Below, in pieces: positions 29,040 through 30,502 of a DNA stretch of 64,000 nucleotides. The translations under genes and the position numbers were made by a program. Location of the stretch: sequence record PQ666541; one strand, 5' to 3'. Source of the stretch: Shigella phage sb3. Each line of letters opens with the position of its first letter. The stretch's first letter is position 1. Below the pieces are notes generated by a model, which worked only from the letters and a program-made list of their open reading frames with translations, made no database searches and had not been told where the DNA came from.

Positions 29040-29878
29040 TAGAATGCTCCTTGAAAAATATTGTCACCACTAGTAGGTCTATTATACAAATACTCTATGC
29101 CACCAGGTTTAATGTAGTTCCATGTCTGAAACGGATGTGTCTGATATGGATGATATAGATGATTATATGGATTTAATCCAGGCGTTCTCCAGGTAGTGTT
29201 CCAAGGAAAAGAATCGTTTTTAACCATCTTCTCAATTAAATCTTTTATAGCTTTTTCACTATCAAATCTTTCTTTATTTTCCTTCGGCGAAAAAAGCTTA
29301 TTTTCTACATCATTCCATGTATAAACTCGCTGGGCAGTTTTTGGAATATTGTCACGCTCTCCTCGAGCCATCCAATAAACAGGAACATTTAATATTTCAC
29401 TCGCATGATCACAGTGATGAGCGAGATCGTCAATATAACAAATTACGTTATATTTCTCTTTTGCCTTTTTGAACAGCTCTTCTTTTGAAGAATCATGACC
29501 ACACATCATTACTTCTGAAAATGCACCAGGAAAAAGAGCATTCAAATTAAATTGACGATTCAGCAGAGCGTCAATAGAATCACCCAGTGCTGTAACAGCT
29601 ACAAAATTATAATCTTCTTTTAATTTGTTAATTACACACAGGGCATCTTTATATGGAGACAAGTAACGAATAAAATCTGATCGATTGTATTTTTCAATTA
29701 ACTTGACACCAAGTTCTTCATCACAATTAAAGAGTTTACCTGGAGAAATAAATTTCTCATCTTGGATCATTTTTAAAATATGTTCTAGCGGAAGATTATA
29801 TTTCTGAGCAAAATAAGGAAGACCTGATTGCCAGCTTAAACATACTCCATCAATATCAGTTAAAATAGTAGGCTTCAT
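29039..29878 (-). CDS. HAD-superfamily hydrolase-like protein (30.2-like)
   Basis: 279-aa ORF with N-terminal DIDGV (DxDG) motif. Confidence 0.65.
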   Translation of the reverse strand: MKPTILTDIDGVCLSWQSGLPYFAQKYNLPLEHILKMIQDEKFISPGKLFNCDEELGVKLIEKYNRSDFIRYLSPYKDALCVINKLKEDYNFVAVTALGDSIDALLNRQFNLNALFPGAFSEVMMCGHDSSKEELFKKAKEKYNVICYIDDLAHHCDHASEILNVPVYWMARGERDNIPKTAQRVYTWNDVENKLFSPKENKERFDSEKAIKDLIEKMVKNDSFPWNTTWRTPGLNPYNHLYHPYQTHPFQTWNYIKPGGIEYLYNRPTSGDNIFQGAF

Positions 29879-30333
29879 AGAGAGTCTCTTAATAGGTTTA
29901 ACACATCAATAAATTCAGCTTCGGTTAGTATTGTATCATCTTTTGTTAGACCACTAGCCATGCTGTGCTTCAAAACTTTTCCTTTCGAGGCTTGTAATGC
30001 ATCGCGAAAGCCCTTGTTTTGGAACGCTGCTTCAAAATATGCATTTGTGTATAATTCTTTCCACGCCGGTGAATATCTTGAAAACGGAACTCCAAATCAG
30101 AACAACGTGCCACGGTCCTGAGCTCTAGCATAAGACCTTCCAGCTTGTTGGGCGGCAAGCCCGGATAACCCAAATATACGACGTTGCTGTTCAACATTTT
30201 TCACCTTACATCCTTGGAGGAATCCTTCGAGACCTCCAAATTGAATGCCATCCATAACGAAAGGCCATTGGGCGAAATTACTTAATGCACATGATGGCCA
30301 TTTAAAATTGCTTCTTATCTCTAGCTCAGACAT
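29875..30333 (-). CDS. NADAR/YbiA-like protein (30.3-like) interrupted by an in-frame TGA
   Basis: SNFAQWPFVMDG matches the SNFAxWP..VDG signature recalled from E. coli YbiA; in-frame TGA at 30097-30099, then 73 more codons ending in an ATGA overlap with 30.2. Confidence 0.6.
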
Positions 30334-30502
30334 TTTCAATACTTATAATTTCAACATCAGCCCAATGACCATAGCAAGGAAGACGAAATTCAACATATAA
30401 TAGACCTTCATGTTTCAGCATTTTATCTGTCTTTATATGTGACTCTTAATGTACTTCCGTAATAGGAGATACATCGCCCATACGATAGGTAACTTCAACC
30501 AT
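30326..30502 (-). CDS. Small ORF with an internal in-frame TAA (uncertain)
   Basis: ATG at 30502, 18 codons, TAA at 30446-30448, then 39 codons to the TGA at 30326-30328; fills an otherwise empty 200-bp gap. Confidence 0.3.

Follow-up and report, generated by a model that had tools for sequence, protein, structure and literature searches.

An in-frame opal codon in a T4-type copy of adfN (gene 30.3) from a phage segment with several broken genes

The adfN locus and its reading frame

The window, i.e. the whole 64,000-nucleotide (64 kb) stretch of DNA analysed here, is a T4-type (Tequatrovirus) segment with the tail sheath gene at one end and motA at the other. Its gene order is colinear with that of Shigella phage pSs-1, and its DNA is about 95-96% identical to the closest of approximately 1000 matching phage records. 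It carries a disrupted copy of the T4-type phage gene 30.3 (adfN), which is a member of that family by descent. The features of this gene and of the genes considered together with it are as follows.

29875..30333, minus strand: adfN (T4 30.3 homologue), 152 codons plus stop, interrupted at codon 79
30100..30333, minus strand: the 78 codons that would still be translated, MSELE...RGTLF, with the N-terminal NADAR motif, E36 and K43
30097..30099, minus strand: opal codon TGA replacing TGG (Trp79); base 30096 is also changed
29878..30096, minus strand: 73 post-stop codons, in frame and otherwise intact, with the protein of SsoM_113 gp30.3 except for L80F; they encode the second strand of the hairpin, helices 89-114, His123, the TxLT motif and the C-terminal helix
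29970..30197, minus strand: nested out-of-frame ORF 30.3' of the T4 annotation, 75 aa
30326..30541, minus strand: 30.4, upstream neighbour, wrecked (ATG changed to ATT, TAG at 30533-30535, TAA at 30446-30448)
29039..29878, minus strand: 30.2, downstream neighbour, intact, 98.2% identical to pSs-1 gp30.2, no stops
25021..27078, minus strand: alt_1, the alt copy beside the ligase gene, broken (TGA at 26176, TAA at 25960, TGA at 25744)
22960..25017, minus strand: alt_2, the second alt copy, intact, 685 aa, 99.3% identical to the pSs-1 homologue, no stops

Translation of the minus strand over 29875-30339 gives LKMSELEIRSNFKWPSCALSNFAQWPFVMDG...AQDRGTLF, a stop, and then FGVPFSRYSPAWKELYTNAYFEAAF...LLRDSL with its terminal stop. 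The TTG at 30339 is a mechanical ORF start, and all annotated homologues begin at the ATG at 30333 (MSELEIRS...). From this ATG the translation runs as MSELEIRSNFKWPSCALSNFAQWPFVMDG...RGTLF to the TGA at 30097-30099, and continues through 73 codons of the same frame to the normal stop. The gene (30333..29875, minus strand) thus has 152 codons by translation, and with ATG 30333 as the true start the TGA is codon 79 and the product is 78 aa long. The coordinates, the motif, the in-frame TGA and the 73 codons behind it had all been proposed in an earlier sequence-only reading, and each was reproduced by our translation.

At the protein level, the codons on either side of the stop show 97-100% identity to undamaged homologues. 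All 12 aligned relatives keep the 30.3 frame open, and each has TGG (Trp) at codon 79. This flanking identity, together with the shared TGG, excludes chance as the source of the reading frame. The position and length of adfN are those of the annotated gene 30.3 in SsoM_113, W143, pSs-1, PP01 and T4, and the order of the locus (30, 30.1, 30.2, 30.3, 30.4) is that of T4, with the ligase gene 30 on the far side of 30.2. The last 8 nt of 30.4 overlap the adfN start (ATGTCTGA); the best full-length identity of this neighbour among 717 phage records is 81.9%. On the other side, the ATG of 30.2 overlaps the adfN stop (ATGA). Translation of 30.2 may be coupled to that of adfN, and the early stop might weaken it.

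The out-of-frame 75-aa ORF, which the earlier reading had placed at 29970..30197, does exist, but it is not a consequence of the stop. It corresponds to T4 30.3', which in PP01 and T4 has the identical size of 228 nt, lies 95 nt from the 3' end of 30.3, and is found with 30.3 intact. Among the aligned relatives, the 30.3' frame contains a stop in two and has lost its start in one, whereas the 30.3 frame is open in all. The idea that the stop exposes 30.3' as an alternative product was therefore rejected, since it is a standing T4 annotation whose frame is not conserved.

Family, fold and function of the encoded protein

With Trp restored at codon 79, the protein matches PF08010 (Phage_30_3) at 231.5 bits against a Pfam curated cut-off of 36, and its halves scored singly give 114.7 bits (N-terminal) and 97.7 bits (C-terminal). 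The alignment to T4 gp30.3 (NP_049816) that the sequence-only reading had called for identifies the gene as its homologue, with 148 of 152 residues (97%) being identical. PF08010 membership was also judged by an open frame of about 150 codons that includes the C-terminal helix, which full activity requires; the window copy, with TGA at codon 79, lacks such a frame. There is no NCBIfam model for the gene 30.3 family, and the PHROGs match of the protein is phrog_652, function unknown.

The relationship to NADAR proteins is more distant. The window protein alone has no match to PF08719, the Pfam NADAR profile, at E<=1, so that the profile search suggested for it fails when confined to this protein; it succeeds through the family, 23 of whose 59 members match PF08719 (best 1.5e-7). 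A profile of the family searched against PDB sequences has only one meaningful match, E. coli YbiA (2b3w, E=0.005), which spans the catalytic motif. For the fold, an AlphaFold2 model was made with the family alignment for the homologue P0003 (86% identical), in place of the Trp-restored window protein. The three best PDB matches of this model (pLDDT 93.4, pTM 0.89) are YbiA 2b3w, Phytophthora NADAR 8bau and Geobacter NADAR 8bat, and every match beyond them has E>=4. As judged from the profile, the family members and the predicted fold, the adfN protein is a member of the NADAR superfamily, a link that needs sensitive methods. The NADAR/YbiA-like assignment, originally made from the motif, is thereby upheld.

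The motif SNFAQWPFVMDG is present in the window gene, as are E36 and K43 (LEGFLQGCK). Both residues are invariant in the alignment of 59 family sequences, in which further invariant columns are A112, H123, T134, L136, T137 and R149. E36 and K43 are the residues that were mutated in the T4 protein and found to be important for activity (PMC11825919), and a catalytic role of the N-terminal Glu/Lys is supported in NADARs (PMC11825919, PMC11543638).

The function of the gene has been established elsewhere. Resistance of T2 and T4 to DarTG1 was mapped to gene 30.3, which was renamed adfN (Johannesman et al., Nat Commun 2025, PMC11825919). AdfN is a NADAR-fold DNA ADP-ribosylglycohydrolase that strips DarT1-made ADP-ribose off DNA guanines (PMC11825919), in keeping with the hydrolysis of guanine-linked ADP-ribose by NADARs (PMC11543638, PMC11125620), and it lets T-even phages grow on DarTG1 hosts (PMC11825919; 10.1101/2025.11.20.689424). 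In a HIDEN-SEQ transposon preprint, adfN was not needed on E. coli K-12, and insertions in this gene disappeared completely with DarTG1 present (10.1101/2025.11.20.689424). Following this published role, an intact AdfN would be a small NADAR glycohydrolase, made early in infection, that lets replication continue in DarTG1 hosts. The gene, its fold, its substrate, its biological role and a natural dead allele were thus already published between 2023 and 2025, and nothing in the mechanism is new here.

The part played by AdfN is to counter a host toxin rather than to undo the Alt activity of the phage itself. This bears on the functional pairing with Alt that had been read from the sequence, in which the NADAR protein would be the eraser partner of the neighbouring Alt ADP-ribosyltransferases, removing or processing the ADP-ribose that Alt attaches, and its location would reflect that pairing. 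Alt and AdfN both deal with ADP-ribose, and the ligase-side alt copy is broken in the window together with adfN. However, T4 AdfN has been shown to act on DarT1-modified DNA, its phenotype is anti-DarTG1 (PMC11825919; 10.1101/2025.11.20.689424), and the characterised NADARs act on guanine-ADP-ribose (PMC11543638, PMC11125620). Nor is the spacing as close as the 1 kb first given: the nearer alt starts at 27078, 2.8 kb from adfN, with alt.1, the ligase gene 30, 30.1 and 30.2 lying between, in an order that is conserved in the T4 backbone and common to T4 and all relatives. The joint damage to alt_1 and adfN carries little weight, since five other unrelated genes of the window are also broken. 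We therefore consider the pairing highly improbable. Hardly any credence is given to its extension, in which AdfN would also remove ADP-ribosylation that the alt_1 product inflicts on the phage itself, and alt_1 and adfN were lost as a writer-eraser pair, the loss of one making the other useless, or to the smaller idea that UGA in place of Trp serves as a leaky, dose-reducing switch.

The three stops of alt_1 are spaced exactly 216 nt apart, and no repeat or other cause for this 216-nt spacing was found.

The TGA codon and the other lesions of the window

In the aligned relatives the sequence at codons 79 and 80 is TGG-CTT or TGG-ATT, and in the window it has become TGA-TTT, which replaces Leu or Ile80 by Phe and places the stop in a UGA-U context. 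The third base of the TGG and the base next to it are the only adfN positions at which the window differs from all aligned relatives. The suspicion that the TGA replaces a conserved Trp proved correct, as TGG is shared by 12 of 12 relatives and column 79 is W in at least 70% of the 59 diverse family members, with Y or F in some others. The surrounding 77 nt have an exact match in none of 728 phage records (best 96.1%), and viral, metagenome and genome collections contain 0 matches to a degenerate pattern of the TGA allele. Apart from the nonsense change at W79 and L80F, the window protein is identical to SsoM_113 gp30.3, implying that the lesion is young. The stop is best explained as a recent, lineage-private lesion, not a conserved recoding signal; the whole reading of the allele as a null is one towards which we lean slightly.

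A templated origin of the double change was considered and set aside: nearby direct and inverted copies of the mutated sequence were sought, and only chance-level k-mers were found, the longest being an 11-mer 22 kb away. The adjacency of the two private changes in adfN might seem special, but adjacent pairs of private changes are common in the window (30 seen, 6.5 expected under uniformity), so that it deserves little weight.

The sequence-only reading had implied that readthrough restores a working protein. In such a case the opal codon would be functional, and near-cognate Trp-tRNA would read UGA at a low rate to rebuild AdfN at a low or host-dependent dose. UGA readthrough in E. coli is indeed a competition of Trp-tRNA(Trp) with RF2 (PMC10570021), which would insert the ancestral Trp, and the 73 codons downstream of the stop carry no further lesion. 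A recent mutation or an error, however, would leave the downstream frame intact just as well. The stop lacks conservation, being private to the window in the comparisons with the 12 relatives, the 728 records and the three large collections described above. The base that follows it is U, reportedly found by Poole, Brown and Tate in 1995 to give the strongest termination context in E. coli. In-frame TAA, TAG and TGA all occur in other genes of the window, so that no single-codon reassignment fits, and no tRNA gene, including a suppressor tRNA, is present in the 64-kb window; the T4-type tRNA cluster lies outside it. Taken together, recoding is unlikely, and we would be surprised if the codon served this purpose.

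The adfN stop is one of many in the window, a point that the earlier reading missed. When the window was probed for lesions with the proteins of pSs-1 and SsoM_113, seven genes were found to be broken in 64 kb, whereas three relatives examined with this probe each had 0 of 62-64 genes flagged. The lesions outside the genes listed above are as follows.

40983: in-frame TAG in nrdB
46907: in-frame TAG in frd.2
46037-46278: frameshift in an 81-aa gene
51109: in-frame TAA in gene 34 (long tail fibre)

A viable phage would not be expected to tolerate a stop in gene 34, and at least part of the lesion pattern may therefore be an artefact of sequence production. Two of the lesions also look like artefacts of a consensus that was reference-guided or drawn from mixed strains. 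In the middle of alt_1, two known allele types are mixed column by column while the register stays that of one type, so that nucleotides of the other are read out of frame, and the TAA of gene 34 is a composite of two haplotypes, combining the T of a TTA haplotype with the AA of an AAA haplotype. In addition, nrdB, 30.4 and frd.2 contain patches that diverge by 12-20% from each of 580-725 phage records, and their transition/transversion ratio is 0.83, versus 3.4 elsewhere. Mutagenesis of the diversity-generating retroelement type was rejected as the cause of these odd patches because no adenine bias was seen. The lesion pattern might stem from a mixed-strain or reference-guided consensus, from a defective genome or from a non-natural sequence.

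The adfN TGA could be an artefact of sequence production too. The true sequence would then be TGG, the TGA and the neighbouring base would be a sequencing, assembly, consensus or other production error, and adfN would be intact and functional. Besides the seven broken genes, which include gene 34, and the composite lesions of alt_1 and gene 34, a further observation favours this explanation: relative to the W143 haplotype TGG-ATT, the adfN change can be written as GG to G plus TT to TTT, i.e. a compensated homopolymer slip. Relative to the commonest haplotype, in contrast, both adfN changes are transitions. The adfN TGA is also not a mixture of known haplotypes, as both of its bases are absent from the 12 aligned relatives, and for this reason it is the most natural-looking lesion in the window, although its reality should not be taken for granted. 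The window overall looks naturally evolved, with 358 synonymous against 127 missense private changes and 77% transitions outside the three patches. Random sequencing noise across the window was rejected on the same figures, the private changes being 73% synonymous. A real null is plausible, too, for a gene that is conditionally dispensable and repeatedly lost in nature. A production error at codon 79 is the main rival to the null reading, and we regard it as quite possible, though not as what we would expect.

With stops in seven genes, one of them essential, single-codon oddities in this window need read-level confirmation. This lesson in data quality is more useful than the adfN stop itself.

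Expected consequence and relation to known systems

We tentatively favour, with slightly better than even confidence, the interpretation that the TGA makes this copy of adfN, a known counter-defence gene, a private nonsense (null) allele, similar to the RB69 allele and to the fragmentary adfN genes of other phages. RF2 would terminate translation after Phe78. The resulting 78-residue fragment would retain E36 and K43, but it would be without half of the central beta-hairpin, four helices, the invariant His123 and the C-terminal helix, and it should neither fold nor work. On the model, the missing part comprises the second strand of the hairpin (residues 76-85), helices 89-114, the strand 120-123 with His123, the TxLT motif, and the terminal helix 138-151. 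Re-initiation after the stop was rejected as a remedy, as the first in-frame start-like codon is codon 121 and yields no useful C-terminal product.

That the allele should be null is further supported by truncations and mutants already described. The RB69 allele and an engineered T4 truncation each lack no more than the 15 C-terminal residues, and this is enough to cripple the protein: RB69 is DarTG1-sensitive, and activity is reduced (PMC11825919). DarT1-associated NADARs also require a C-terminal catalytic acid, which is D171 in the E. coli C7 NADAR (PMC11543638). In the window allele, 74 residues are lost, including the invariant H123, T134, L136, T137 and R149. UGA at a Trp codon is the leakiest nonsense type, so that "null" may mean a few percent of the normal protein, i.e. 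a leaky null.

On the sequence as written, the phage is expected to be DarTG1-sensitive, except where another anti-DarT factor, e.g. AdfA, makes up for the loss; in hosts lacking DarTG1, no effect is expected. A genuine TGA would make the phage a natural adfN knockout, which should be blocked by E. coli or Shigella carrying DarTG1, with the same proviso regarding other anti-DarT factors. It would then be useful for host-range prediction and would add to the evidence that unneeded counter-defence genes get lost. Loss of adfN is recurrent, as frameshifted or deleted fragments are found among the public proteins of other T4-like phages (P0007, P0013-P0017, P0021, P0057 and P0102).

Among the known systems, T4 AdfN is similar to the window gene in its length, its neighbours (30.2 downstream and 30.4 upstream), the nested 30.3', and the residues E36, K43 and H123. 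The window copy differs from it by TGA for TGG at codon 79, by Phe for Leu at position 80, and in that 78 residues are made. A Glu that is conserved in other NADARs is replaced by His in the T4-like AdfN group (PMC11825919).

The DarG1-type NADAR antitoxins, of E. coli C7 and Geobacter lovleyi (8bat), described by Schuller et al. (Mol Cell 2023, PMC11543638), share their fold with AdfN, as does Phytophthora 8bau; in the Foldseek search of the model, 8bau and 8bat rank 2 and 3. The same N-terminal Glu/Lys pair is common to the DarG1-type NADARs and AdfN, and so is hydrolysis of guanine-ADP-ribose on DNA, which for AdfN was shown with the T4 protein. The identity between them is only 15-16%, however, and AdfN is an orphan phage gene without a DarT partner. 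E. coli YbiA (2b3w), the founding NADAR/DUF1768 member, is the best structural match (E 5.9e-5, TM 0.67) and has the SNFA-WP...DG...E-F-Q-K motif in common with AdfN. It is nevertheless only 19% identical, and it hydrolyses riboflavin intermediates and does not rescue DarT1 toxicity (PMC11125620).

For the broken alt_1 alone, T4 alt.-1/alt.-2 is a relevant comparison: according to the T4 record notes it is a decayed alt duplicate, and hence a precedent for stop-codon decay of an alt paralogue. Being another gene, it is silent on the function of adfN.

The closest parallel to the disrupted allele is adfN of RB69. RB69 escapes DarTG1 through AdfA mutations (PMC11825919), and the adfA status of the window phage lies outside the 64-kb window. 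In RB69, a +T insertion at nt 411 costs the protein its last 15 residues, whereas in the window a nonsense substitution takes away 74. Both are natural inactivating lesions as written, and T-even phages with a dead adfN are DarTG1-sensitive (PMC11825919).

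Broken genes and private changes against relatives

When the proteins of the relative pSs-1 were used as a control probe, no stops or frameshifts were found in any of the 62-64 genes of each of three relatives (L011, L012 and L013); the same probe reveals six genes with stops or frameshifts in the window. Gene 34 is an additional broken gene of the window, detected with the proteins of SsoM_113, another relative. The changes private to the window were divided according to whether they fall within three patches, namely 30.4, a patch in nrdB, and frd.2-frd.3. Outside these patches the private changes are mostly synonymous with a transition/transversion ratio of 3.4, and within them the ratio is 0.83.

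Genes with lesions in this set, together with a neighbour of frd.2, are as follows:

40338-41513, minus strand: nrdB, with an in-frame TAG at 40983-40985
30326-30541, minus strand: gene 30.4, with the start ATG changed to ATT, TAG at 30533 and TAA at 30446
46589-46966, minus strand: frd.2, with an in-frame TAG at 46907-46909
46037-46278, minus strand: 81-aa gene neighbouring frd.2, frameshifted, recovered by tblastn as two pieces in different frames

The TAG of nrdB is located within a patch of ~120 nt, in which the changes are mostly non-synonymous and the best identity is no higher than 87.6% among 582 phage records; outside the patch, the encoded protein is ~96% identical to those of relatives. 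Over their full lengths, gene 30.4 attains a maximum identity of 81.9% (among 717 phage records) and frd.2 a top value of just 87.3% (among 725).

Mixed allele types in alt_1 and gene 34

Two alt copies and the tail fibre gene were compared with their counterparts in relatives:

25021-27078, minus strand: alt_1, the ligase-adjacent alt copy, with in-frame stops TGA at 26176, TAA at 25960 and TGA at 25744
22960-25017, minus strand: alt_2, the second alt copy, intact
50659-54528, plus strand: gene 34, long tail fibre proximal subunit, with an in-frame TAA at 51109-51111

Successive stops among the three in alt_1 are separated by exactly 216 nt. In the middle third of this gene, alleles of the pSs-1/T4 type and of the UGKSEcP2/SsoM_113 type are interleaved at fine scale. 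Since all 684 codons align with pSs-1 without gaps, the UGKSEcP2/SsoM_113-type nucleotides are read out of frame.

In gene 34, the codon that is TAA in the window is AAA (Lys) or TTA (Leu) in relatives. The codons 3' of it carry the haplotype of TH09 and the flanks that of SsoM_113, and the first in-frame ATG past the stop lies at 51172. Gene 34 is essential in T4, and this TAA should not be expected in a viable phage.

Gene 24.2, the nested ORF 30.3' and damaged adfN

Two further minus-strand features were compared with relatives:

9806-10080, minus strand: gene 24.2, disrupted relative to SsoM_113
29970-30197, minus strand: 30.3', the nested ORF annotated in T4, compared with the corresponding region of L001-L013

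In pSs-1, only a 33-aa remnant of gene 24.2 is left; the lesion in the window is therefore common to a real relative.

Across L001-L013 the 30.3' frame is not conserved, containing stops in TH09 (L012) and L009 and lacking its start in L004. The frame of 30.3, with which it overlaps, is uninterrupted in 12/12 relatives and hardly varies among them. This pattern argues against 30.3' as a real gene.

Many damaged genes of adfN, the 30.3 homologue, occur in public T4-like genomes and metagenomes (proteins P0007, P0013-P0017, P0021, P0057 and P0102). Some are frameshifted directly after Trp79 and some into the 30.3' frame; in others a deletion has placed the adfN C-terminus behind an N-terminus from 30.4, 30.7 or 30.8. 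Judging from these sequences, adfN seems to be lost recurrently.
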